Assembly: GCA_054600435.1 (NCBI GenBank)
Contig: BAAIJX010000004.1
Location: 186,001-250,000, forward strand
Source of the DNA: Neophaeotheca triangularis
Lineage: Eukaryota
Direction: 5' to 3'
DNA: 64,000 bases
How positions within the stretch are numbered: the stretch's first letter is position 1; every line of letters begins with the position of its first letter. This document shows positions 3,945-61,971 of this stretch, one piece after another. The position numbers were made by a program, and so were the translations under genes. The notes beneath the pieces were generated by a model. The model had not been told where the DNA came from, made no database searches, and saw only the letters and a list, made by a program, of their open reading frames with translations.

Positions 3945-3979
3945 TGTATTGGTTTGGAATGATCGGGTGGTAAGGGGGG

Positions 3980-4028
3980 TTGATTGGTTGATTGGTTGAT
4001 TGATTGGTTGATTGATTGATTTGATTGG
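3980..4028. repeat. Imperfect (GATT/GGTT)n microsatellite just upstream of the MDR start codon
   Basis: gttgattggttgattggttgattgattggttgattgattgatttgattgg read directly. Confidence 0.85.
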
Positions 4029-4235
4029 AGAAGGATGAAGGGGGTTTGGAGAAGATGAGGGACAGGTTGGACCTACAACGGAACAGGGAGAGCTTACTAT
4101 ATGATGCTATGCTACCTCATGTAGAGGAGGAGTTGGAGATGTATTACGTCGGTTAAGGTACAAGTAGGACGGGATGCTTCTACCGAGGTCGGGTTGGTAG
4201 TAGTACTTACGGTTGAAGTTCGGTCAAAGGGCTGA

Positions 4236-4644: not shown

Positions 4645-6651
4645 ATGACCGGAGAGGAACAATCCAAAAGGTCGCGACCGTGCGACGCGTGCAGGCGTAG
4701 AAAAAGCAAATGTGTGACGGAAGAGGGCAGCAACTCTTGCGTCCTTTGCAAGTTTCATGATGCTGCCTGTACCTTTCTACATGCCGCTCAGCCGCGCAAG
4801 CGTCCAACAAGCAGCCCTGCTTTTGCAGAAGACTCGTCCGTGGCCAAGAAGCGACGTGAAGTCCGGAGCAGGCCTGGCCCCGGTCTTGAGATTGAAGAGT
4901 ACGACGATCTTCCCGGCTCCGTACCGACCTTGTTGAAGCGCACCCTGGGTTTGCAGAACCTCCATCATAGCCAGCTGATCGGACCCAATGATGTATTGCA
5001 CACCTACGGTCCGACAGGAACCACAAGCCAAGATGCCTCGGCGCAAGGAGGCGAAGCATCATCGTCCAAAGAGACTGTCCGATTTGTAAACCCATTGTAC
5101 GCTTTTCGCATCACGCCAGACGCCGCAACTGTGAACCTACAGGACGAACGAGCCCTTGTAGATGGAGTCGAAGCCACTGTTCAGGGGCATGGAAGAGCAT
5201 TGATTATGCTCTATTTCCGAATCGTGCACCCCAGCTTTCCCGTCCTGCACAAAGCTGTGTACCTGGAAAAGTACGCTCGCTCGCATCGAGAGTTCTCGCC
5301 GCCATTGCTCGCAGCGGTGTACTTACTTGCTTCTCGATATTGGAATTACTGCGAAGCGCTGTCAGAGCAGCGCAAACCGGACCTATCGGAGCTACAACGG
5401 CTAGCGTGCGCCTCGTTTCAGATGGCCAAGAAACGACCGAAGCTCTCAACTGTACAGGCCTGTTTGCTGTTTGCTCAATTCCACAACGCAGGAGGCCAGA
5501 ATTTCCACAGTAGACTGACTACAGATCTCGTGGATTTGACTTACAGGCTTGGTCTCCACCTAGACGCTTCGGACTGGGACATCCCAAGCTGGGAGATTAG
5601 TCTAAGGCGACGACTGGCATGGGCGGTTTTCATGCAAGATAAATGGATTGCGCTATTGGAGGGCCATCCGTCTCTGCTGACTTACGAAGATTGGGAAGTT
5701 CGAGGCCTCTGCGAAGAAGATTTCCCCGAGAGCGACGAGGACGATACCGAAGGCAGCTCCGAGGTCGAGAAAGGCCGTTTGGTCTTCACCAACATGGCCG
5801 TTTTGGCAGAGATTTTGTCCGAAATGCTCCTGAAGATATTCTCGGCACGTGCACGCCGCACGCTGGATGGCGCTTCCAACCCTTTCGCGGAGCTCCTCGA
5901 GCGGGTCAAGCCTTTGCAGGTTCGTCTGAAGAATTGGTACACCACACTACCGCCCGCCGTGAGGCTGGAATCTGCACCATCCATGAAGCTCTCACCGGTA
6001 GGCTACCTACGCCTGGCTTACCTGGCAGTAGAAGTCTGCCTCCATCGTCAAATTATAAAGGTGTTACCCCCCATGAATCAGGCAATGCCCGCCACGCCCA
6101 TCTACCGTTCGGCTGCTCGAGAACGCCTCGACAACGCAATAGACTTCATCCAACGCCTGCAAGCCCAGCACATCGCAAGTTTCTGGTTCTTCGCTTCCGC
6201 CAGAAGCTGCGCCTTGATCTACTCCTTCGGCCAAAGTCTAGAATCAACTTCCCACAACGACAAAGACCGCCTCTACTTTAGCAAAAAACTTCGCGAATTC
6301 AGATGGGCGCTCAAAGTCAACAGCGAAGCGGGTGCGTCTTTCGCAAAAACCGCTTTGGCGTTGATTGACAATTCCAACAAGGTTCTGGCTTACAATCCTA
6401 CGGCTTTCTCGACTACCACTAGTCCCGCCCAGAACTTTGGCATGAGCTTCTCCACCACCCCATCTGTTGCCAACGATGTCCCCAATATGTCGCAGGGCGG
6501 CGATTCCATGCTGGATCCTAACCTTTTTCAAGTCTCTTTTGACCTCAATACTTCGGAACCGGTGGCGTGGAATGAGGAGTCTGCTGGTGGTTTCATGTCT
6601 TGGTCTAGTTTCGATCCGAGCAGGGTTGGTATGAGCGATGGTATGGGTTGA
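4645..6651 (+). CDS. Zn(II)2Cys6 transcription factor with fungal-specific middle domain, Dal81/TamA-like
   Basis: RPCDACRRRKSKC-x8-CVLCKFHDAACTF binuclear cluster; YFRIVHPSFPVL, RPKLSTVQA, RRRLAWAVFMQDKW motifs; single 668-aa ORF. Confidence 0.9.
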   Translation: MTGEEQSKRSRPCDACRRRKSKCVTEEGSNSCVLCKFHDAACTFLHAAQPRKRPTSSPAFAEDSSVAKKRREVRSRPGPGLEIEEYDDLPGSVPTLLKRTLGLQNLHHSQLIGPNDVLHTYGPTGTTSQDASAQGGEASSSKETVRFVNPLYAFRITPDAATVNLQDERALVDGVEATVQGHGRALIMLYFRIVHPSFPVLHKAVYLEKYARSHREFSPPLLAAVYLLASRYWNYCEALSEQRKPDLSELQRLACASFQMAKKRPKLSTVQACLLFAQFHNAGGQNFHSRLTTDLVDLTYRLGLHLDASDWDIPSWEISLRRRLAWAVFMQDKWIALLEGHPSLLTYEDWEVRGLCEEDFPESDEDDTEGSSEVEKGRLVFTNMAVLAEILSEMLLKIFSARARRTLDGASNPFAELLERVKPLQVRLKNWYTTLPPAVRLESAPSMKLSPVGYLRLAYLAVEVCLHRQIIKVLPPMNQAMPATPIYRSAARERLDNAIDFIQRLQAQHIASFWFFASARSCALIYSFGQSLESTSHNDKDRLYFSKKLREFRWALKVNSEAGASFAKTALALIDNSNKVLAYNPTAFSTTTSPAQNFGMSFSTTPSVANDVPNMSQGGDSMLDPNLFQVSFDLNTSEPVAWNEESAGGFMSWSSFDPSRVGMSDGMG

Positions 6652-6783
6652 GTGCCGACAAGTGTCTCCATCCTCCGGTTCAGTCCGAAGATGATCACGG
6701 CCAAGAACAGTCCTGTCCTACGGCATACTACCGTGCTCCTCAGTCTTGGCACGTGCGACGTGACCACTCAACGGGACATTCAG

Positions 6784-7590
6784 CTACGTTGCTACAGACT
6801 TTACCGCTGCTTGTCCTGGTCTGAGCTCTTCTTCCGCCAATCTGCTCTTCGCCAACTTTCGGTGAACATAGTCGCCCGCCGGAACTGGCTCATATCCTGC
6901 CTTTCTCATCTGGAGATATGCAGGTGGGGAGGGGTTCCACCATGGCATCATAATTGACTACTCCGAAGAAGAAGGGAACCGAGTATACCGCTCCTCTACA
7001 GTGATGTTTTCAAAACCCTATGAACGGTCGAGATATAGACATCATTCGACCATCGCGCCAGCATGTCGCTTATGTTCACGACGAAGGTACCCGGTATCGG
7101 TGGAGCTTCTATCCATTCGCCTTCCATATTCAGGATCTGGAGGGCCGGCTGTGTCCCCCAGCAAAGGATCGTAAAGCCCTCGATTTCGGTATGTGCGCCG
7201 ATTCTAAGGGCGTCCGGTTGTGACGCATTCTGGGCCGGCTACTCCAGGAGCCGCAACATGGCACCAGGATACGTGACAATTGCGTCAAAGTGGTTCTCTG
7301 GCAGGCCCAGCACTTTTGCCATGAGCCTCACTATTCGTCGGGCTAGGGACAGCAACTCGCCGCAATACTGCGCGACGCCATGCTTGAAGCCTACTTGTGA
7401 TGGCCATACGTTAGGCTCGACCATGGGATCGCTTTTCTGGACTTGGTAATGAGGGATGTCAGGCAAGCATTCTCTGCGATCAATCAACGGGACCATTACT
7501 CACTCTCCGCCGGCGTGTCGGGATTTCTCTCCGGGTCAAGTGAGGGTTCATAGCCGCAATTGAAGGCCTCATTGAGATCGGGCTTCCTCT
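6784..7590 (-). pseudogene. 2-oxoglutarate/Fe(II) dioxygenase (IPNS-like family) pseudogene, 5' end missing
   Basis: Minus strand reads KPDLNEAFNCGYE-[intron]-PNVWP...MLRLLE*PAQ...IGAHTEIEGFTIL...PPIPGTFVVNISDMLARWSND..STVHRV, then frameshifts near PFFFG and before YEPVPAGDY. In-frame TAG at 7239-7241; HxD iron ligand reads HTE. Confidence 0.85.
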
Positions 7591-7641
7591 TTCGTCGGTG
7601 TGGAACAATATGGATGGTCACTGATGGTTACCCTTTTCAAA

Positions 7642-8396
7642 GGCACGAATCTGTCCGCAAACGTGATAAGTGCTTCGTAAGTTCATCCGCTCTTGAAAGC
7701 CGATTCTGGGATTGGGCTGATTTATTCTAGCAACGATCTGGTAAATCTATGGCCGAAGTACACGTCCATTCGACGTGGTGTCGTACTCATCACAGTCACT
7801 GCAGGTTGGATCATGGCGCCTGAGAAGATGGTACATTCAGCGACAGTCTAATCACCTTTATGAACGGCCTCGCAATCTTCCTGGCGCCCATTGCCGCCCT
7901 ACTAGCCTGTGACTACTGGGTGGTCAAAAAGCGCAACATCGACGTTCCCAGCCTGTATCGCCGACACGCGCGATACAGGTACAACAAAGTCGGCAAATGG
8001 AGGGCTGTAGTCGCTTTCGTGGTGTCTGTCACGCCTAGTGTTCCAGGCCTGGCAAAGGCAGTCTCTTCGAGTGCCGAGATTAACGACGGCATCAGTCATC
8101 TGTAAGATTCCGCCACTTTGATTCCATTTCTACGCCCGCTGACTTTCCGATAGACACGGCATGAACTATTTGTGGGGGTTTTCTCCGCATTCTTCCTTTA
8201 CTGGCTGCTTTCATATTTCTTCCCGGCGAAGGAGGCACTTCTCGAGGCGAGCATTCACGACGACCCCGAAGTTATCGAAGGTGTGCAGTACGCCAATGAT
8301 GGCATTAAGCTAGAGCCCGTTGGAGGCGAGTCGTCTGGAATGACGTCTAGCCAGACTGAGAAGAAGACTGCTGAGGCGCATGTTGGAGGGAGCTGA
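7642..8396 (+). pseudogene. NCS1-family (uracil/allantoin, Fur4/Dal4-like) permease pseudogene, C-terminal part only
   Basis: GTNLSANVISAS-[intron ~7677-7730]-NDLVNLWPKYTSIRRG, frameshift ~7845, FMNGLAIFLAPIAALLACDYWVVKK, intron ~8102-8153, second frameshift at the G-run ~8175. No N-terminal coding region found. Confidence 0.85.
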
Positions 8397-8585
8397 TCAT
8401 GTATGTAACCTGAGGACGTGGCGGTATAGATATATAAGTAGGAGACTTTATGATGATTACCTAGCCGTGCTGGATGAGACGGCAGAGATGGGTACGGTAG
8501 CATGTATAAAGAAAGGTACGCTGTGAGTTTGTCCTGAGTTTATCCTCCGCAATTGCGACACCATCAAATGTCGATCCCAACGTCA

Positions 8586-8619
8586 CCAGCGTGCGTACCC
8601 GCCAGCGTGCGTACCCGCC
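8586..8619. repeat. Perfect 16-bp tandem duplication (CCAGCGTGCGTACCCG x2) upstream of the MRJP gene
   Basis: Read directly. Confidence 0.8.
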
Positions 8620-8743
8620 CCCAAAGCCGGGAGGAGTGACATGTCATGGCCGTCAAGATATATATATTGCTGTGATTCCGGTAGGAAGCTGCTTTAATTG
8701 AGGTCTTTCGCCTTCCTCGTCACTGTCATTAGCCCTCAGCAGG

Positions 8744-10157
8744 ATGCTACCTAAAACAATCACAGCTCTGCTGCTGGCACAAGGAGTATCATCGCAGGTA
8801 ACCTTTCAGAACAACTCTGGGACAAGGCTTCGGGTCGACAATGGTACTTATGGCCCGGAGATTGAAGAGGTTCATTACTGTAAGCACGCCGCAATCCCTT
8901 TTCATAGCTCGAGGAACACGGCTTAACACGTTGTGAAGATTACGACCAGTGGCCTATAGGCATTGCAGTCGCAAGCGACTCCCGTATATTCACAACCTAC
9001 ACTCGAGGCTCATACGACTATACCCTTGGCGTCGTGGTCAATGAAACAGCGGAAATGCCCTATCCCAATGCTGGGCTGAATCTTCCTCCCAGCCAGCTCA
9101 ACACGAGCTACAACGGCATACCCTTCGGCTCGGCGAACGCTTCAGGCCTCATCTCTGTGCAAGCCGTGTACATTACTCCAGAGCAAAAGAATGGCAGCAG
9201 GCCGGAGACACTCTGGGCCATCGACACAGGCCGACCCACGATCCACAACAGCCAAGGGGAGCCTTCGATGCCATATGCTCAACCAGGCGGCCCGAAACTG
9301 ATCGCCATCTCTCTCGCGAACAATTCCATTTACGAGACTTTTGTTTTCCCTAGCGACGTCCACTTCCCAGACTCCTACCTCAACGACTTGCGCTTCGATC
9401 TACGCGCCAATGTCAGCGGTACCAGCGGCAAAGGGATTGCGTATCTAGTCGACAGCAGCAATGAAGGCCGCCCAGGCTTCATCATGGTCGATCTCGGCAC
9501 CGGCGAGTCGTGGCGACGACTCACGCAGGACCGCTCGGTGCTGCGCGGCTTCAACGACGTCCCCTCCTACCAAGGCCAACCATTCTACTTTCGTCAGAGA
9601 GGTTCGCCGGTCGGATGGCAGCTGGAAGGACTAGACGGGATACAGCTGACGCCCGACGGCGAGCGCTTGTTCTACTCGCCTCTGTCGACGAATTACTTGT
9701 ACTCCATCCCCACCGCTAACCTGCGGGAGCGAGATTCCAATCCCCTGGCCGAGCTCCATGCCCATTCGAACGTCTCCTCGCACGGGCAGCGAGGCGGCGA
9801 TGCTAATGGTTTTGAGGGCGACTCCGATGGTAGAATCTACCAGCTCATGCCGGAGCACAATGCCATCTACTATTTTGACCAGAATGATGGTCAGACCCAC
9901 GGCTTTCTTAGGGATCCACGGATCATCTGGCCGGACGGCGCTAGTGTCGGCAACGATGGCTATATCTACATGAATGTAAGTTTGATTCTGACGGTCTTGT
10001 GTGTTGGTTTTGGACATGTTGCTGATGCCTTTGATAGATCAATCAGCTGCCTTATCAGCCGGATTGGAACAATGGGGTGGATACTCGAGAGTATCCGGGC
10101 GCTGTGTTGAGAGCCAAACTACCCGAGGGTGCTTCAAAGATAGTGACGCTGGGTTGA
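8744..10157 (+). CDS. Secreted major royal jelly protein / yellow family protein, 3 exons
   Basis: Signal-like N-terminus MLPKTITALLLAQGVSSQ; YDQWPIGIAV, ISVQAVY, LWAIDTGRP, YLNDLRFD, DGIQL, RIIWPD motifs; introns ~8880-8938 and ~9976-10037. Confidence 0.9.
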
Positions 10158-10721
10158 GGATTGATCTTTGTCCATGTCGCTTACTGCCACCTATGCCGAT
10201 GTTGGAGAGGGCAGGGTAGGGATGGTTTTGTGTGTGAAGAGCAACTCGGCCAATGAATGATCAATGCATGCGCCTCGGACCCGTCTGTATCATCATCATC
10301 AATTGTCTTGACACGATCGAATCATCGAATATCCTGTAAGACAAACAGGTAAATGTTTATGAAGTGTTGTTTGGCCCACGAAACGCCAGCAGAATTGCCG
10401 GACCATTCCATTTGTCTGACTAAAGTGATGAAACTTTGAAGCTCCCGGTATCCGCCCAAACTCTGCAACCCGCCGCGCTATCACTCTGATGGCGCGCGCC
10501 GACGGGCGGCGTAGGGACACTTTCGACACGACAACAACATGGGCGGGATAAGGTAGACGAAGTGCCCGGTACTGCACTGCAATGGCGGGGTCAGCTTTCA
10601 ACAGGATAGTCATTCTCGGTGTGGTATAAGTACATCCATCACCGTTTCTCTTCATCCATAAGCCATTCATCCCATCGATCGTTCGCTTCCGACATCACCA
10701 ACGATTTCATACAACAACACC

Positions 10722-12836
10722 ATGCAGCTCTCTTCAGCAAGACCATACCCCTTCAAATTCCGCCCCGAAACCACAGCGTTGGTGATTATCGACATGCAAC
10801 GAGATTTCCTGGATATCGGCGGATTCGGCCAAGTACAGTGCGGCAACGACGAGGTATTCAACCGCGTCAGAGAGGTTGTCCCTACCACGCAAAAGGCATT
10901 GGCAGCCGCCCGACAGCTTGGATTACAGGTCATTCATACCCGCGAGGGCCACAAGCCAGACTTGTCCGATCTTCCTCCATCAAAGCGGCTTCGACAGATC
11001 TCCGCCCCTTCCGGGAATCATACCGTGGGTATCGGCGACCAGGGCCCGATGGGACGGCTACTGACCCAAGGGGAATACGGACACGACATCATCGACGAAC
11101 TCAAGCCTCGCCCCGGAGAGCAGGTCATCGATAAGCCTGGAAAAGGCTCCTTCTGGGACACCATCTTCCACCGCTGTTTGATGGCGCGTGGGATCACTCA
11201 TCTGCTGTTTGCTGGTGTGACAACAGAATGCTGCGTAAACTCCACTGCTCGCGAGGCCGCTGATCGTGGGCTTGAGAGTTGCATACTGAGCGATTGTACT
11301 TCTGGCTTTGACGCATCGTTTGTGACTAAAGCGCTGGATATGCTTTGCTCTTACGATGGGCTTTTTGGCTATGTTGGTTCGTCGAAGGAGCTGCTACGAT
11401 ATGTGGTCGAGCAGACACCCCCCATCACGCCCCCTGCGTTTGATCGCGATGTCTCGATTGCTGCGCTGAGGCAGCAGTACCGGAGTCGGCGGGCGCAGCC
11501 GACCATAGTTGTTGAAGATGTGATGGGGCGTATCGAGGCGTATCAATCAATAGATCCAGCAGTGTTTACTCACCTTGAGCCACGGGATCAGGTCTTGCGG
11601 ACGGCCAGGGAGCTCGAAACTCGCTATGAGGATCAGCCTTTACCACTACTCTATGGGGTTCCCTTTGCAGTCAAGGATAATATTGACGTGGCTAACGTTC
11701 CGACAACCGCTGGCTCTTCGGCGTACACTTACACTCCGACCTCCACTTCCCCTGTAGTTACCGCTATTATAGAGGCAGGCGGCATCTTTGTGGGAAAGAC
11801 CAATCTTGATCAATTGGCCACTGGCCTCTCGGGGTGTCGTTCCCCGTATGGAACCCCTAGGAGCGTCTATGGCCGGGACAGGGTATCTGGAGGCTCTTCG
11901 TCCGGCAGTGCAGTAGCGGTAGCCGCAAAGCTCGTTTCTTTTGCCTTGGGCACAGATACTGCTGGCTCTGGTCGCGTACCGGCTGCTTTCAACGGCATCG
12001 TCGGCTTCAAACCGACCAAGGGAACATTCTCAGCCAAAGGCCTTGTTCCAGCTTGTGCGAGTCTAGACACCATCACTATTCTCGCCAGCACTGTTAATGA
12101 GGCCAGAGAAATATGGCTCGCAGCAGACACCGGCCCCGACCCTTCAGATCCCCATTCCAAACCACAGTCCACACTTCCACTTCGACACATCGACTTTCGC
12201 GGCCCGCGCAACGGCGGCTTCATCTTCGGCATCCCACCTGCGTCCGCTTTGGCCGACCTGACACCAACCTACCAAACCCAGTTCTCCTCCGCAATCACCC
12301 GCCTGCAGAAAGCCGGGGGCACAGCCAAAGAAATCGACTGGGAACCCTTCAGCGGCGCCAACGACCTCTTGTACGAAGGCAGCCTCATGCACGAGCGCAT
12401 AGCATGCCTGGGCCCAGACTTCCTCTCCAAGAACCTAGAGACTTTCGAGCCCGCAATACGGGAACTCTACGCGAAAGCCCTGGCGCGACCTACCAAACCC
12501 TGGGAGGTCTTTAAAGATCTTCACCTCCAAGCGCGGTATTCTCGTGACGCTGCTACGTTGTTTGATCAGGAGATAGATGTGCTTTTGGTGCCCACGGTGG
12601 TATGTCATCCGACTGTTGCGGAGATGGAGAAGGACCCCTTGGCGTTGAATGCGAGGTTAGGACTTTTTACGCATTTTGGTAATGTGCTGGATCTTTGTGG
12701 GATTGCTGTGAATGCTGGATGGTATGAGGAGAGCGATGGGAAGTTGCCGTTTGGGGTCACTATTGTCGGGGGCAGTGGCATGGATGGTAGGGCTTTTGAC
12801 ATCGCCCGGGAGTTTGAGAGGGTTGAAGATGCTTAG
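10722..12836 (+). CDS. Fusion protein: isochorismatase-family cysteine hydrolase (triuret/biuret-hydrolase-like) + amidase-signature allophanate-hydrolase-like domain
   Basis: N-domain IIDMQRDF / HTREGHKPDL / IDKPGKG / GVTTECC (Asp-Lys-Cys triad); TPPITPP linker; C-domain AVKDNID, GKTNLDQLATGL, GGSSSGS, GTDTAGSGRVPAAFN (Lys-Ser-Ser triad). Intronless, 704 aa. Confidence 0.9.
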   Translation: MQLSSARPYPFKFRPETTALVIIDMQRDFLDIGGFGQVQCGNDEVFNRVREVVPTTQKALAAARQLGLQVIHTREGHKPDLSDLPPSKRLRQISAPSGNHTVGIGDQGPMGRLLTQGEYGHDIIDELKPRPGEQVIDKPGKGSFWDTIFHRCLMARGITHLLFAGVTTECCVNSTAREAADRGLESCILSDCTSGFDASFVTKALDMLCSYDGLFGYVGSSKELLRYVVEQTPPITPPAFDRDVSIAALRQQYRSRRAQPTIVVEDVMGRIEAYQSIDPAVFTHLEPRDQVLRTARELETRYEDQPLPLLYGVPFAVKDNIDVANVPTTAGSSAYTYTPTSTSPVVTAIIEAGGIFVGKTNLDQLATGLSGCRSPYGTPRSVYGRDRVSGGSSSGSAVAVAAKLVSFALGTDTAGSGRVPAAFNGIVGFKPTKGTFSAKGLVPACASLDTITILASTVNEAREIWLAADTGPDPSDPHSKPQSTLPLRHIDFRGPRNGGFIFGIPPASALADLTPTYQTQFSSAITRLQKAGGTAKEIDWEPFSGANDLLYEGSLMHERIACLGPDFLSKNLETFEPAIRELYAKALARPTKPWEVFKDLHLQARYSRDAATLFDQEIDVLLVPTVVCHPTVAEMEKDPLALNARLGLFTHFGNVLDLCGIAVNAGWYEESDGKLPFGVTIVGGSGMDGRAFDIAREFERVEDA

Positions 12837-13157
12837 ACTTGGTTTTGTAAGGAAAGGAAAACTTCAGGCGATCACATTCACCTGTGTTCTGCTTATGGCA
12901 AATCAATTTTTGTCAATGCTGCTCAGACAGCTTCAGTGTCTTTCCTTTGACCATGGTCCTTGAACGCGTTGAGCCGGACCGTAAAGATCTGGGAAATTGT
13001 AGATGAAATGATAAATCATCTCGGCGTCGAGGCGTGTTCAGCGGCTAGATGACTCGGACAGGCACATCTTGCAGCTGTTTGTTCATAGCAGCGCCGACGT
13101 TGTCTCCCAGGAAGAAAGTAGAGCAACATCCGCCGCGAGCGCAAAAGTAAGAATCCC

Positions 13158-51443: not shown

Positions 51444-53018
51444 TTATCGTTCTTTGACTCTTGAGTCTTGAGCGTTCTGCCTTTGTAGTCGAGTCTCTGT
51501 AACTGTGTCTTTCACCGCGTGGATAACGAAAAAAGCACCACCATGAAAAAACGCTGGGGTAGGTACCTTATCCCTGAAAGCAGTATTCCCGGTACTCAAC
51601 GCCGATCTTCCCGCATTCTCCCTCGAGCAGACTCCCATGAATAAAGCAAACCTGGGCATCGCTGAATGCAGTATTCTTAGTGCCCAGGGCCAATGACTTT
51701 GCACTGTCCATTTGCCAGGAAAAAGGAAATTGGAACTCTCTTCGAATGCCGCGTACCCAGTGCCCGACGCCAATCTCTCCGCATTTTCATCTTTCACACT
51801 CCAATCTGTTTTCGTCGTAGACTCGTAGTTGTCTGGCGCCACACCTTTGGCCATGTCGACCAAGTAGCAGTCACGTAGCGTCTCGCGTGCCTTTTTGGCT
51901 TGAGCCTGCGATCCGTACTCTTCGCGAAGGAGCCATCCGCCGGAGGTCATGTCGATGGGGAACTCTTTGTTCTCGGTCGCAATCTTGGCTCTGGCCTCGA
52001 CGTTGGGGATGGAGAAGTTGGCGACGTTGTAGTAGAGGTTGTAACCCACTGCGAACTGCTTTTGCAGCCTGTTCTCAGTGCTCCTCAAGCGCTTTGCATC
52101 CGTGAGCCCACCGCGCACAAAAAGCATGATTTTGGCCATGGTCTTGCGACGCCAGCCTCCCAGAAGAGCGCGCACGATGGATGCGGGCCTCAAAAAGTGT
52201 TGTGGCATCCAGATCAGGTTCTCGAGGATGGTGTATGGAACGCCGGGGGGAGACTGCACGAGGGAGGACACGGTAGTCTCCATAGAGCCACCGTAAACCT
52301 TAGCCTTGTTTTTTCCAGCTCTCACGGCCGCTTTCGCAGCTGCTACGGCTTGTTTCTCCGCTACAGTGATGGACATGCCGTGCTTCCACATCGAGAGCCT
52401 CTTCGCGCCATCTTCCTCATCCAGGGGGGTTACAGAAGTTGACGGGTCACCGGGTTGGTCGCTCGTGCCGCTGGGGAACGGGGAAGAAGCAGCGGGAGCG
52501 TTAGCTGTTGGGCGCGTGGAGGTGGAGCTGGGGTGGGCAGATATGGTCGGTGGGGTTGCTTCAACAGTAGTTGCGATGTTTCCCGAAATGGAGGATGAGA
52601 AGTCCGAGAGTCCCATGTTGAGCTCTTGAAAGGTAGCGTGCGGCGTTCTGAGAGCCTTCTCAACCTCATGATGGATGTCGAGACCGTTGATCATGTTGGA
52701 GTTGTACAGACAAATGTCATCCGGAATAGGGGCTTCGCAGCTTCCATGAGGGTTCTCCACATGCGCAGGATCTTGTAGCCCAAAGCTTGGCGGCAATAGG
52801 CCGTTTGAGAAGACTGCCTCAATTCTGATCGCGTGAAGAAGATCATCGTCCACAGGAGCTGTGGGGACGGGGAGTAGAACGTTGTAGAATGCATTTTCGG
52901 GGTCGTTCAGCGAAAGGTGATATGCCTAGAATTGTTTGTTCAGTATCATGAACGTGTGTCTTGCATGGTATCCTTAGCTCACCTCGTCGGGTGCGTCTAC
53001 CATGCTAACGTCTCCCAT
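51444..53018 (-). CDS. Uncharacterised family member A (paralog of 60319 and 63065 genes), C-terminus apparently replaced
   Basis: Exon 1 52983-53018 (MGDVSMVDAPDE), intron 52926-52982. Shares MW...EKQA...YGG, GGWRR, TENRLQKQF, WLLREEY, RDCYLVDMAKGV with the 60319 protein; similarity stops at ~51824. Confidence 0.7.
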
Positions 53019-59137: not shown

Positions 59138-60318
59138 GGCTCCACGTTGCATGCGTCCGAACGTATCGGAGCCCTCTGAGGGGCGACTCTCAGGAATGAC
59201 TCGCTCTCTGATCTGGTTACTGCAGAGATTTTGCTAGCTCAAGGAATAAGATTATGACCTAGTCAGTGATTACGGTTTGGGGTCATGATCTGAAGCGATA
59301 TTCTTGCAATTTAAGATCTAGAGGCCAGTCGCCGAGAAAGGTGCTTCTTTTTCTCGCAGCTTGATACTCCAGGGTGGCGACGAAGGCGGTCTAGGCTTAT
59401 CATTCTTGTGGTAACATCGCTCCGTTTTCTGTTGATCCGTTTTCTGTTGCTTTTAGCGGTTAGGCTGTGGCCTCAGTGCGCCTTTGGGGGCTATTGATCC
59501 TTACTTGACGAGTCGACATCAGACCTGCTCTGTTGCAGCAATGAAACTGCTTTCTCATCCTTATACATAGCGTTAGTGGACTTTTCCAGAATCTTCGTTT
59601 GTCCCTCCAATAGCAAGTGTTTCGTCCTACACCCTATACATAGTATCCCAATGACAAGGAGCACAAAAGCTTAAGCAATCACACTTTCTGCTTTGAAATG
59701 GGCAGCCTATACATTGAACAATCTTTTGATTCTATATTTTTCGTGCGCGGCCTATGCAACGTATATAACACTCGTGCTATCGCCACTTCAAAAGCCCTCA
59801 CATCCTTATGTCTTGATAATAGCTCTACCTGACCAGTATACTCAAAGATCGTTCTCTATTGTGATCTATCTCAAGAACGCCTAGGTCCGAATCTACCCTC
59901 GATCTTTTTGGCGCAGGGTAAGCGTGACAGAGCTGCAGAGCTGCGAAGTTTTGGCCCGTCACGTGTGAAAGTGGAGCTGCATGACCCCTTTTTCCGCGCG
60001 TTGGTTGCGAATCCATACCACCGTCATCAAACCTAGCTCTCCCAACCAGGCCAACAACCTCAAGGCCGTGTTCAACAACCTCTCGTTATCTTCTAGTACC
60101 ATCCCTGAGCACTACTGTCAACGAAGACCTACGTTCTGTGGAGTCAGGTCAGGCTAGTCCGCACCCCTCGACGCGCTCGAGGAATCGAGAGCTAGGCACT
60201 TTCAAAGTGAAACCTCGCTTTCCATAACACAACCTCCACCTCCCATCTTTTCATTTGAAAACAAAGACATCGCTCTCAACGGCTACGCAACCAAGCGGCA
60301 GTTGGAACCTCCAAGGTA

Positions 60319-61971
60319 ATGACGAAGTCGAGTGTTTCTTCCTTGTCACCCCCTGACGTCCTGAATTCTAGTACAAGGATACTACTAACGTCCGCGGACG
60401 AACACGACGACGCGGCGTTCTTCGGCGACATTCAAGCGATGGACTGGGAGGGAGAGCAAGGTTCCTTCTTCGAAGAATCTGGCAGGCGCATGGAGGATAG
60501 TCTCGCTGTCGAGCAACGGAAGAAGAAGCAGAACGGAAACATTGGACACCAGCACGGGGAGGAGTATCTCATAGCCCAGCCCATGATGGAGGCCGCCTCC
60601 CCTGGAATCGATCACCCTGTTCAACGCAGCTTTTCCGGCTCGACCTCATATAACACAGCGCAACGGCCTGCAATTGCTTCATGGGTTGCGGCGCTCGAGG
60701 CTGTGCAGGCTTTGACTGCGCCCGCTACAACCCCAGCGCACCGACCTACAATTGCTTCGTGGGTTGCAGCGCTGGAAGCCGTACAAGCCATGACTCGGCC
60801 CGTTACCATTACAGCACCGGCACGACTGCCTACAACTGCTTCTTGGGTTTCAGCCCTCGAAGCTGTGCAGGCGATGACCCGACCCGCTGGCACCTCGAAT
60901 ATAACAGACTCCGACACACCCGCTTCGCTCCCTCTTGACTCGGATTCCGTCGTTGTGGACTCAGGCATTCCCCAGGCGATGAAAGACATGATGTCGGTGC
61001 TCCTCGTCGCCCCCACCAACAGCTCGAATCCCAACACTGTTCCTCAATCGACCCGACATTCGATCGAAACTTCGTCGTTTTGCTCAGAAGCTCCAACAGT
61101 CACGCCCGTGATGGTCACAAAATCTGCCCCTGAAAACGATGGTAGCCTTCCGATGTGGTCGAAAGCCGAGCCGCTTTCTGCTTCAGAGAAGCAGGCCGCC
61201 AGGGCTCTTCAAGTAGCTATCGCAAGCGGCGCCGACATTCGAAAAGCTTACGGTGCAGCAATGGCCGATGTCGTCTCCGCATTTGTCAAGATACCCGCCG
61301 GCGTGCACCTCACGGCCGAAGAGATCCTGATACATCTTCCAAACCACCTCCAGATCCCAGCCGTCGTAACCCGTCTACTCAATGGTGGCTGGCGTCGCAG
61401 TTCAATGGGCAAGAAGATTCTCTCCGCTCGCGGACTTCTCGTGGACGATACGGCTTTGCTCAACACCGAAAGCCGTCTCCAATCCCAATTCGAGACTGGG
61501 TGGAACACCTACTACGGTGTTTCCAACTACAGCAGTGCGAACGTCGAAGCTTTTAACGCTGCCATCCTGCCCACCGACACCACACCTGACGAATGGCACC
61601 TTCGCGAGGAGTATTCACTGGACTCCGCTAGAGTCGCAAAAGCGCATTGCAGGTTCCGCGATTGCTACCTCGTGGATCTCGCCGAGGGTGTCGCTCTCGC
61701 AGACTTTGCCCAGGGCGACCAGGCAGGCGTTCTTACGGAGTGCATCAAGGAGGCCTTGTTTTTCGACTCTGGGCTCAAGCTCTCCGATGTCCCTGCCATG
61801 ATCAGAGATTTGGGGCTCACCATGCCAGCGTACGACGCAAGCACAGTCAACCCGGATAGGGCGCCGGTAGCGGATGCTGTGTCAATCGCTCGCCCACCCA
61901 AGGCCCCTAAGCCAGCTCGTCTAGCCGGTCCGGGCAGCCTCAAGACGGGCAAGCACCGGGTCAAGAAATAG
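60319..61971 (+). CDS. Uncharacterised family member D (apparently intact), with a 3x internal peptide repeat
   Basis: 550-aa ORF; acidic/disordered N-half, full C-terminal domain ending GDQAGVLTECI...; start codon uncertain. Confidence 0.75.
   Translation: MTKSSVSSLSPPDVLNSSTRILLTSADEHDDAAFFGDIQAMDWEGEQGSFFEESGRRMEDSLAVEQRKKKQNGNIGHQHGEEYLIAQPMMEAASPGIDHPVQRSFSGSTSYNTAQRPAIASWVAALEAVQALTAPATTPAHRPTIASWVAALEAVQAMTRPVTITAPARLPTTASWVSALEAVQAMTRPAGTSNITDSDTPASLPLDSDSVVVDSGIPQAMKDMMSVLLVAPTNSSNPNTVPQSTRHSIETSSFCSEAPTVTPVMVTKSAPENDGSLPMWSKAEPLSASEKQAARALQVAIASGADIRKAYGAAMADVVSAFVKIPAGVHLTAEEILIHLPNHLQIPAVVTRLLNGGWRRSSMGKKILSARGLLVDDTALLNTESRLQSQFETGWNTYYGVSNYSSANVEAFNAAILPTDTTPDEWHLREEYSLDSARVAKAHCRFRDCYLVDLAEGVALADFAQGDQAGVLTECIKEALFFDSGLKLSDVPAMIRDLGLTMPAYDASTVNPDRAPVADAVSIARPPKAPKPARLAGPGSLKTGKHRVKK
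60664..60885 (+). repeat. Coding tandem repeat, 3 units (78 and 84 nt spacing), PxxASWVxALEAVQAxT
   Basis: Visible in both DNA and translation; units differ mostly at third codon positions. Confidence 0.9.

Follow-up and report, generated by a model that had tools for sequence, protein, structure and literature searches.

A partly deleted, putative nitrogen-scavenging gene cluster of Neophaeotheca triangularis encodes a TrtA-related cysteine hydrolase fused to an AtzF-type allophanate hydrolase

Background

The bacterial triuret pathway TrtA-(TrtB)-BiuH-AtzF, described in Herbaspirillum sp. BH-1 and Rhizobium (PMC7948467; structures 6XIX/6XJE), is among the described systems closest to the fungal locus reported here. 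The locus lies at positions 4645-12836 of a 64,000-nucleotide stretch of the Neophaeotheca triangularis genome (positions 186,001-250,000 of contig BAAIJX010000004.1, in an assembly of 25.4 Mb in total), referred to below as the window, and encodes a protein in which a cysteine hydrolase is fused to an amidase. It shares with the bacterial enzymes the Asp-Lys-Cys triad, F35, N41, E160, an aromatic residue at 187 and the coupling to AtzF. It differs in that a single cysteine domain, joined to the AtzF-type amidase, stands in place of two enzymes, and in that the fungal cluster adds a 2-oxoglutarate (2OG)-Fe(II) oxygenase and an NCS1 permease upstream.

The amidase half has the amidase-signature domain, catalytic triad and Tyr/Arg pair of AtzF, the Granulibacter allophanate hydrolase and the Dur1,2 amidase (4CP8, 4GYR, 4ISS), but the fusion lacks the AH_C domain and its N-terminal cysteine hydrolase replaces the urea carboxylase partner. 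A stand-alone amidase has been reported in Dothideomycetes (PMC3073912); it is likened to the fusion by its description only, and the available text of that paper does not mention a second domain. With the Saccharomyces DAL/DUR regulon (PMC4589623) and TamA of Aspergillus nidulans (PMC10169451), as far as these sources describe them, the locus shares a transcription factor (TF) family, NCS1 uptake and allophanate breakdown, but it has no allantoinase- or allantoicase-type genes and its entry step would be oxidative, not purely hydrolytic. The oxygenase belongs to the fold family of thymine 7-hydroxylase (5C3P), TropC, the PA4191-like enzyme (6JYV) and plant 2-ODD-C23 and has their iron motif; it is set apart by a motif of its own, HTDIE(C/A)FTIL, and by bacterial kin that lie beside BMP transporters.

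No description of the fusion or the cluster was found in the available text of the full-text literature searched (including PMC2409186, PMC12623156, PMC6219798 and PMC11018352), and papers on BiuH or GuuH, or their supplements, may already describe the fusion. The text of the supplement to the TrtA paper does not mention fungi, a fusion, eukaryotes or a dioxygenase. The cluster is apparently uncharacterised, a TrtA/BiuH/AtzF-type system with an added oxidative entry step. Work on BiuH by Robinson in 2018 reportedly includes fungal BiuH-like sequences, and the fusion itself may be in print.

Results and discussion

Gene content of the locus

The locus is best explained as what a partial deletion has left of an old fungal cluster, one that would scavenge nitrogen. 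The original prediction, made from the letters of the sequence, had placed a regulator, an oxygenase, an NCS1 permease and a cysteine-hydrolase::amidase fusion here and taken them for a partly dismantled cluster for ureide or N-heterocycle catabolism. All four elements were found in place by Pfam and NCBIfam matches, and the dismantling was borne out: the oxygenase and NCS1 genes are truncated and carry at least seven lesions, and the regulator and fusion genes are free of them. The closest named relatives of the window genes are from Dothideomycetes, in the Mycosphaerellales group. The following features were delimited:

4645-6651, + strand: Zn2Cys6/Fungal_trans transcription factor, putative TamA/Dal81 paralog, intact, 668 aa, introns not required
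~6784-7605, - strand: 3' remnant of a DIOX_N/2OG-Fe(II) oxygenase gene, ~codons 105-350, pseudogene (PF03171 1.5e-14)
~7590-7643: deletion junction, where oxygenase codon ~105 meets NCS1 just 5' of the GTN-x-S-A-N-V segment
~7644-8396, + strand: 3' remnant of an NCS1 permease gene, pseudogene (PF02133 3.6e-12, TIGR00800 1.4e-15)
8744-10157, + strand: MRJP/yellow-family secreted-type protein, 430 aa, intact (PF03022 2.8e-18)
10722-12836, + strand: cysteine-hydrolase::allophanate-hydrolase fusion, 704 aa, intact (Isochorismatase 3e-38, Amidase 5e-79)
10722-11411, + strand: N-terminal domain of the fusion, isochorismatase-like cysteine hydrolase, TrtA-related (best PDB match TrtA 6XIX, 1.8e-62)
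11430-12836, + strand: C-terminal domain of the fusion, AtzF-type amidase (4CP8 1.5e-90, 4GYR 1.9e-90)

Origin of the truncated genes

The oxygenase and NCS1 remnants are joined back to back. In L003, a fungal locus with the intact cluster (see below), the two breakpoints lie 1,968 bp apart and span a divergent promoter of 605 bp. One deletion, of about 2 kb as judged by L003, removed both 5' ends and the promoter that they shared. The predicted loss of the import and oxidation steps, with the regulator and hydrolase kept, was upheld in this more precise form, as the loss of a divergent gene pair in one event.

Four sequencing runs were compared with the window, and one of them (X1) may be its source. 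The junction was crossed by a contig from a separate study (X3; 7040-8074, 0 differences, depth 2) and by one from another strain (X2; 7174-7773, 21 differences and 3 gaps); run X4 yielded short conserved pieces only and left the junction uncovered. The junction holds TTCGTCGG. In the oxygenase frame this encodes Thr-Asp-Glu, and it is matched by codons for Phe-Val-Gly in the L003 NCS1 gene. A microhomology-mediated deletion at this site is possible, and the match is taken only as a hint because an excess of 15-18 nt follows TTCGTCGG.

The oxygenase remnant lacks its first ~105 codons and shows a TAG stop at 7239-7241, an HTD to HTE change and four frameshifts (near 7590, 7008, 6985 and 6900). 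The NCS1 remnant lacks the N-terminal part, starting at GTN-x-S-A-N-V, and has at least two frameshifts, with the introns 7677-7730 and 8102-8153 retained. Since at least seven lesions have accumulated in ~1.4 kb of remnants and none in the 4.1 kb of the TF and fusion genes, the latter two were maintained by selection after the deletion. Of 199 conserved columns the fusion deviates at two, in comparison to a median of one for the 119 listed homologs. Synonymous changes account for 15 of the 20 TF codons in which X2 differs (among 22 differences listed). Of 12 X2 indels listed (19 in all), six affect a single base pair in the remnants or junction, and the coding parts of the TF, MRJP and fusion genes contain none of the 12. 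The X2 contigs across 10546-12012 and 12274-13102 are gap-free. With fusion and TF still under selection, the substrate of the fusion would also be available to the cell when the oxygenase is missing.

One further X2 contig skips 1,411 bases (10571-11983), which hold the fusion promoter, the cysteine domain and the amidase triad (depth 64; the shorter flank has only 26 letters). Over the same interval the intact X2 contig has a depth of 66 vs ~100-107 alongside. A second X2 haplotype may be hinted at here, one that is losing the fusion as well.

No intact ortholog of the oxygenase or NCS1 gene was found elsewhere in the genome, the assembly of which may be incomplete. Relocation of the lost genes was considered and rejected: the best other matches are paralogs (oxygenase on contig C34, 48-50 % identity; NCS1 on contig C69, 45 %). 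The NCS1 remnant is 55-64 % identical to the L003 permease, in comparison to 45 % for the next best paralog in the genome. Dinucleotide ratios revealed no signature of repeat-induced point mutation.

Occurrence of the cluster in other fungi

The original prediction had been staked on the co-location of the orthologs in other genomes, and such co-location was found. A scan of metagenome contigs gave 80 loci. Two of them, the near-identical fungal contigs L003 and L004, contain all four genes intact: TF(+) comes first, followed by NCS1(-), which is head-to-head with oxygenase(+), and then by fusion(+). In L064 the fusion and TF genes adjoin. In ten named genomes from three classes the fusion lies beside the oxygenase and/or TF gene, as judged by consecutive tags or accessions:

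Zasmidium cellare: PRZ48_002932 fusion, 002933 oxygenase, 002935 TF
Meristemomyces frigidus: LTR85_007919/20/21, consecutive
Dothistroma: EME48023/24/25, consecutive
Oleoguttula: fusion-oxygenase, 007317/16
Septoria: fusion-oxygenase, KAI5357764/63
Teratosphaeria nubilosa: fusion-oxygenase, KAF2772235/36
Xylariomycetidae FL2044: fusion-oxygenase, KAH9889733/34
Cercospora kikuchii: fusion-oxygenase, 000036000/000036100
Aureobasidium pullulans: fusion-TF, QM012_007614/15
Venustampulla: fusion-TF, BP5553_10690/91

The oxygenase directly adjoins the fusion in eight of these genomes (Dothideomycetes and Sordariomycetes) and in L003. Homologs were also linked indirectly, by contig matching, in which two entries had exactly equal lengths of their longest contig, among the matches listed (119 fusion, 120 TF and 119 oxygenase entries), and the resulting link counts are not comparable as rates. 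In this way 22 of the 119 fusion entries were tied to a TF entry and 10 to an oxygenase entry, and there were 7 TF entries with such a tie to the oxygenase list. Each of six offset controls yielded 0-1 links. Four additional linked pairs were found beyond the main matching. Fusion-oxygenase pairs linked by contig matching include the deep-branching P0384/P0152 and, with a dead amidase, P0380/P0175. The cluster is real and, by the co-location of its orthologs, conserved. The gene order in the window would follow from an inversion of the NCS1/oxygenase block and the insertion of the MRJP gene.

A second head-to-head NCS1/2OG-oxygenase pair, adjoining a Zn2Cys6 TF gene and with no hydrolase seen, is present on contig C34 (48835-54366; L100). 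Its genes are only 30 % and ~48 % identical to those of the L003 cluster, and the three-gene layout is a recurring one.

The fusion protein

The predicted cysteine-hydrolase::amidase fusion was confirmed. More closely described, its cysteine domain is related to TrtA and its amidase is an allophanate hydrolase of AtzF type. PDB matches of the N-terminal half were strongest for TrtA, followed by BiuH (3e-55 to 2e-49) and RutB (1e-24, 29 % identity). The domain is ~52 % identical to TrtA-type and ~45 % to BiuH-type proteins. Its triad D24/K138/C171 and V166-T167 correspond to D24/K129/C162 and V157-T158 of TrtA. The ureide-binding residues of TrtA are reported as F29, E72, K132, T158 and E160 (PMC7948467), and equivalents of all five are kept. 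The second-shell sites agree with TrtA in part: F35, N42 and E169 match, and F196 and L214 are similar to its Y187 and I205. Compared with TrtA, the fusion has a BiuH-type serine (S143) at the A134 site and a one-residue insertion at Q39-C40. Among the 119 listed homologs the fungal group is marked by Q39 (112), C40 (114), C170 (119) and D212 (117); neither Cys170 nor Asp212 occurs in any of the 78 TrtA-type matches in the 80 prokaryotic loci.

The BiuH signature (Tyr 35, Tyr 41, Asp 160, Thr 187, Gln 202) is replaced by F, N, E, F and Y in the fusion, and the BiuH model NF050097 scored 218 vs a cut-off of 370 bits. A BiuH-type gene was not found in the genome by the searches made. In a quick tree of isochorismatase-like hydrolases (75 rows) the amidase-fused cysteine domains form one clade (94 in the Shimodaira-Hasegawa-like approximate likelihood-ratio test, SH-aLRT) beside TrtA (89) and apart from BiuH. 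The predicted model, with a mean predicted local distance difference test (pLDDT) score of 89, gave template-modelling (TM) scores of 0.87 to TrtA and 0.84-0.87 to BiuH, so the fold does not discriminate between them. The domain was left unassigned to TrtA itself because a tyrosine (Tyr211) replaces the substrate-binding Q202. The fusion family has members among the Pezizomycotina, the basidiomycetes (Meredithblackwellia) and the yeasts (Limtongia, Dipodascopsis and Sugiyamaella).

The amidase half matched 4CP8 and 4GYR far better than GatA (5e-39) and reached 464 bits, in comparison to a cut-off of 487, with the NCBIfam allophanate hydrolase model (model positions 6-446 of 600). The Lys-cisSer-Ser triad K318, S392 and S416 is present in 119/119 listed homologs. 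S416 aligns with AtzF S189, assuming a 20-residue tag offset in 4CP8, and S189 is the reported nucleophile (PMC6219798). Y551 (119/119) and R559 (118/119) align with residues of AtzF and the Granulibacter enzyme. In AtzF these are Y320 and R328, the pair that binds allophanate. The AH_C domain (PF21986) is absent from the fusion and was not found in the genome; an amidase-only fragment of AtzF is reported to retain activity (PMC3944691). No other AtzF-like amidase was found in the genome (next best 109 bits). The oxygenase and permease beside the fusion would also give a role to the allophanate hydrolase that filamentous fungi have as a stand-alone enzyme (PMC3073912).

In Aureobasidium subglaciale the cluster TF and a complete AH_C domain (PF21986, 4e-48) are merged in gene models P0268 and P0272, which suggests that in some species a separately encoded allophanate hydrolase C-domain may lie beside the cluster.

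In the yeast-lineage copies (Limtongia, Dipodascopsis, Sugiyamaella and kin) the amidase triad is lost and the cysteine domain kept. This fits with Dur1,2 supplying the allophanate hydrolase there, which Table 2 of PMC3073912 lists for 7 of 7 Saccharomycetes, the three yeast genera not being among them. Dead-triad fusions are P0373, P0375, P0376, P0379, P0380, P0385, P0388 and P0391, and also P0371 (Aspergillus californicus) and P0374; their amidase half is still near full length and possibly has a structural or channelling role.

The transcription factor

The TF was matched by Fungal_trans (4.8e-32) and by Zn_clus (0.0011; 19.4 bits, cut-off 21), with six Cys present. The genome holds two members of the family, the window copy and one on contig C36, 39 % identical. 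In a FastTree phylogeny of 38 of 122 sequences, with a long branch on the C36 copy and a TamA reference based on annotation only, the window TF grouped with cluster-linked TFs (support 99) and the C36 copy with P0351, annotated as OTam. The original prediction of a Dal81/TamA-like regulator holds for the family and can be refined: by its position in the tree the window TF is a cluster-linked paralog, not the TamA ortholog. Homology of TamA and Dal81 is reported in PMC10169451, and Dal81 is needed for induction by allophanate or oxalurate in yeast (PMC4589623). The three upstream regions shared ten 7-mers; a first-order null gave 4.3, and only one resample in 200 had as many as ten. These were not read as a motif because they are mostly of low complexity and no 8-mer is shared. 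The upstream regions also gave no match to a DAL upstream induction sequence pattern.

Oxygenase and transporters

The oxygenase remnant is 72 % identical to PRZ48_002933 of Z. cellare (P0136) and 79 % to P0191, and is nested among cluster-linked oxygenases (support 100) on a branch of 0.32, vs 0.11 for its sister. Intact orthologs have the HxD...H iron motif. The best PDB matches reached E-values of 1e-46 to 1e-33 and no close characterised relative was found; the top match is labelled ethylene/succinate-forming enzyme (9OVH), true ethylene-forming enzyme (EFE) structures match only at 1e-13 and thymine dioxygenase at 4e-33. An ESM Atlas search with the L003 oxygenase returned the generic family only.

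Two named bacterial relatives were used as queries against 401 + 401 genomes of Alphaproteobacteria and gave strong matches in 25 and 28 of them. A BMP/PnrA nucleoside-type binding protein is encoded in 13 of 20 regions around the top bacterial oxygenases, and a RutR-like regulator in two. Within 1.5-kb flanks BMP occurred at 14/19 of the closest and 0/22 of the distant loci, a split that was drawn post hoc, with loci from few related groups and 15 intermediate loci left out; five of these 15, seen in larger regions, had no BMP. A BMP match was present in 7 of 80 TrtA-type loci. The NCS1 and BMP transporter families thus indicate a nucleobase- or nucleoside-like substrate. Bacterial contigs with biuH or trtA are also reported to carry BMP-type nucleoside transporters and sometimes NCS1 (PMC12625717).

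One prokaryotic TrtA-type locus (L141, 4778-6669; Stellaceae) has a 2OG oxygenase gene divergent to the TrtA-type gene and beside a branched-chain-type ABC transporter.

Other nitrogen genes of the genome include urease (two alpha-subunit matches, on C43 and C31), three DUF1989 loci (C16, C9 and C32; L193-L195) and a urea-carboxylase-like gene on contig C96 (1220 bits, cut-off 1304). The latter, at C96:13225-18700 (L191), is divergent to a LamB/YcsF gene, a layout that is presumably that of the Aspergillus lamA-lamB lactam-use locus, and fungal stand-alone urea carboxylases may be lactamases. The idea that the fusion is kept as partner of the urea carboxylase is weakened by this LamB neighbour and by the distribution of the two enzymes in PMC3073912.

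Proposed pathway and alternatives

The reading that we favour, with moderate confidence, is that the complete cluster would serve to import a nitrogenous compound, oxidise it to an acyl-urea of biuret/triuret type, cleave this to allophanate and release ammonia, under a dedicated TamA paralog. The NCS1 permease would take up a compound resembling a nucleobase or ureide, with products of purine oxidation as the likeliest candidates, and the 2OG-Fe(II) oxygenase would convert this compound to the acyl-urea. A TrtA-like step alone yields carboxybiuret or biuret, not allophanate, so the TrtA-related domain would have to act twice at the terminal amide, cut once at the inner carbonyl (giving allophanate and urea) or take another substrate. 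The fused AtzF domain would turn allophanate into ammonia and CO2, and the TF is probably the inducer of the cluster genes. A bolder form of this pathway appears rather doubtful: the oxygenase would be dedicated to turning a purine catabolite (of the urate, allantoin, allantoate or oxonate type) into triuret, biuret or a similar acyl-urea, and the fungal TrtA offshoot would cut the inner carbonyl, a single polypeptide converting triuret to allophanate and urea and on to ammonia without BiuH. If true, this would be the first case of enzymatic production of compounds thought to form non-enzymatically, and a second, oxidative ureide pathway in fungi with its own TamA paralog.

Several observations weigh against the favoured pathway. 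The Gln202 site of TrtA is Tyr211 in the fusion, with Tyr in 83 and Gln in 32 of the 119 listed homologs, and Gln-Gly in all 78 prokaryotic TrtA-type matches (80 loci). Q202 binds triuret and biuret, and its change to Glu is reported to cost TrtA >95 % of its activity (PMC7948467); together with the clade-specific Q39, C40, C170 and D212 this means that the substrate may be neither triuret nor biuret. Among the 80 prokaryotic TrtA-type loci just one has an oxygenase of this kind, which is distant (34 %), and TrtA, BiuH or AtzF were found in none of the 20 bacterial oxygenase regions. NCS1 membership was directly seen in two lineages only (the window and L003/L004). The genes are also not linked in every genome: the listed TF of C. 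kikuchii (000922200) is distant from the fusion (000036000), TF and fusion are apart in Scytalidium (g4793, g9279), and in Phlyctema and Meredithblackwellia the fusion and the listed oxygenase are on separate contigs. Of 189 conserved columns the TF deviates at 12, in comparison to a median of 2 for 55 homologs, 11 % of which reach this number; the TF may therefore be under weaker selection. Dal81 is described as acting broadly and through Dal82 (PMC4589623), and its role in yeast is therefore not directly transferable to a paralog.

The most serious competitor, though unlikely, is that fusion and TF form a module of their own for environmental or non-enzymatic triuret and biuret, a TrtA/BiuH generalist feeding AtzF, to which the NCS1-oxygenase pair is loosely attached by shared nitrogen regulation only, carrying out another nucleobase reaction (N-demethylation, hydroxylation). 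The persistence of fusion and TF after loss of the other two genes agrees with this, as do the C34 pair with its TF and no hydrolase, the bacterial oxygenase kin without a ureide hydrolase and the reported existence of a biuret/triuret generalist in Rhodococcus (PMC7948467). The higher number of fusion-TF links (22) than of fusion-oxygenase links (10) points the same way, but only among the matches listed, where the two are not comparable as rates. Against such a module, the adjacency of fusion and oxygenase in the eight named genomes and L003, and in P0384/P0152 and P0380/P0175, would be a long-lived linkage for unrelated reactions.

We give little credence to a guanidine route. Guanidine or guanylurea would here be released by the oxygenase, and the cysteine domain, which has an additional acidic residue in D212, would be a guanylurea hydrolase or carboxyguanidine deiminase working with a urea/guanidine carboxylase encoded elsewhere. 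The C96 carboxylase-like gene, the three DUF1989 loci and the fusion as the sole AtzF-like enzyme found in the genome are in line with it, as are reports that GuuH derives from the cysteine-hydrolase family (PMC12623156) and that some 2OG enzymes release guanidine (PMC11018352). The 9OVH label would suit it too, but true EFE structures match far more weakly; the C96 gene has its LamB/YcsF neighbour, no carboxylase is present in the L003 cluster, and Table 2 of PMC3073912 gives M. graminicola the amidase only and three Aspergillus species the carboxylase only. The NCS1 and BMP neighbours indicate nucleobases instead. About as unlikely is a Rut-like pyrimidine route, with uracil or thymine opened or oxidised by the oxygenase and the cysteine domain acting like RutB. 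Fungal NCS1 proteins include uracil carriers, thymine dioxygenase belongs to the oxygenase fold family and RutR-like regulators lie near two bacterial oxygenases, but RutB is much more distant than TrtA or BiuH, and its chemistry leads to carbamate and does not need an allophanate hydrolase. The possibility that the genes are neighbours by chance, or that the junction is an artefact of assembly, deserves almost no weight: each of the four families is widespread in fungal genomes and the contig matching is indirect, but co-location elsewhere and the spanning of the junction in X2 and X3 refute it.

For the favoured pathway, the oxygenase and permease beside the fusion are named candidates for the missing upstream step. 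The window is a natural experiment, in which the back half of the cluster is still selected after deletion of the front half. The cluster is relevant to the use of purine-derived nitrogen by plant-associated and soil fungi and to the biuret and triuret impurities of urea fertiliser.

Other features of the window

The MRJP gene, not mentioned in the original prediction, sits between the NCS1 remnant and the fusion; with introns at 8880-8938 and 9976-10037 its spliced frame is open. It has no match in the L003/L004 clusters and is a passenger, unrelated to the cluster. A short tandem repeat of GATT/GGTT at 3974-4029 lies upstream of a neighbouring zinc-type dehydrogenase gene. Two long, orphan-looking open reading frames (ORFs), at 51444-52925 and 60259-61971, contain similar segments ('LSASEKQAA'/'ITVAEKQAV' and 'NGGWRR'/'LGGWRR', from the ORF list only), and the second of them has short internal repeats.

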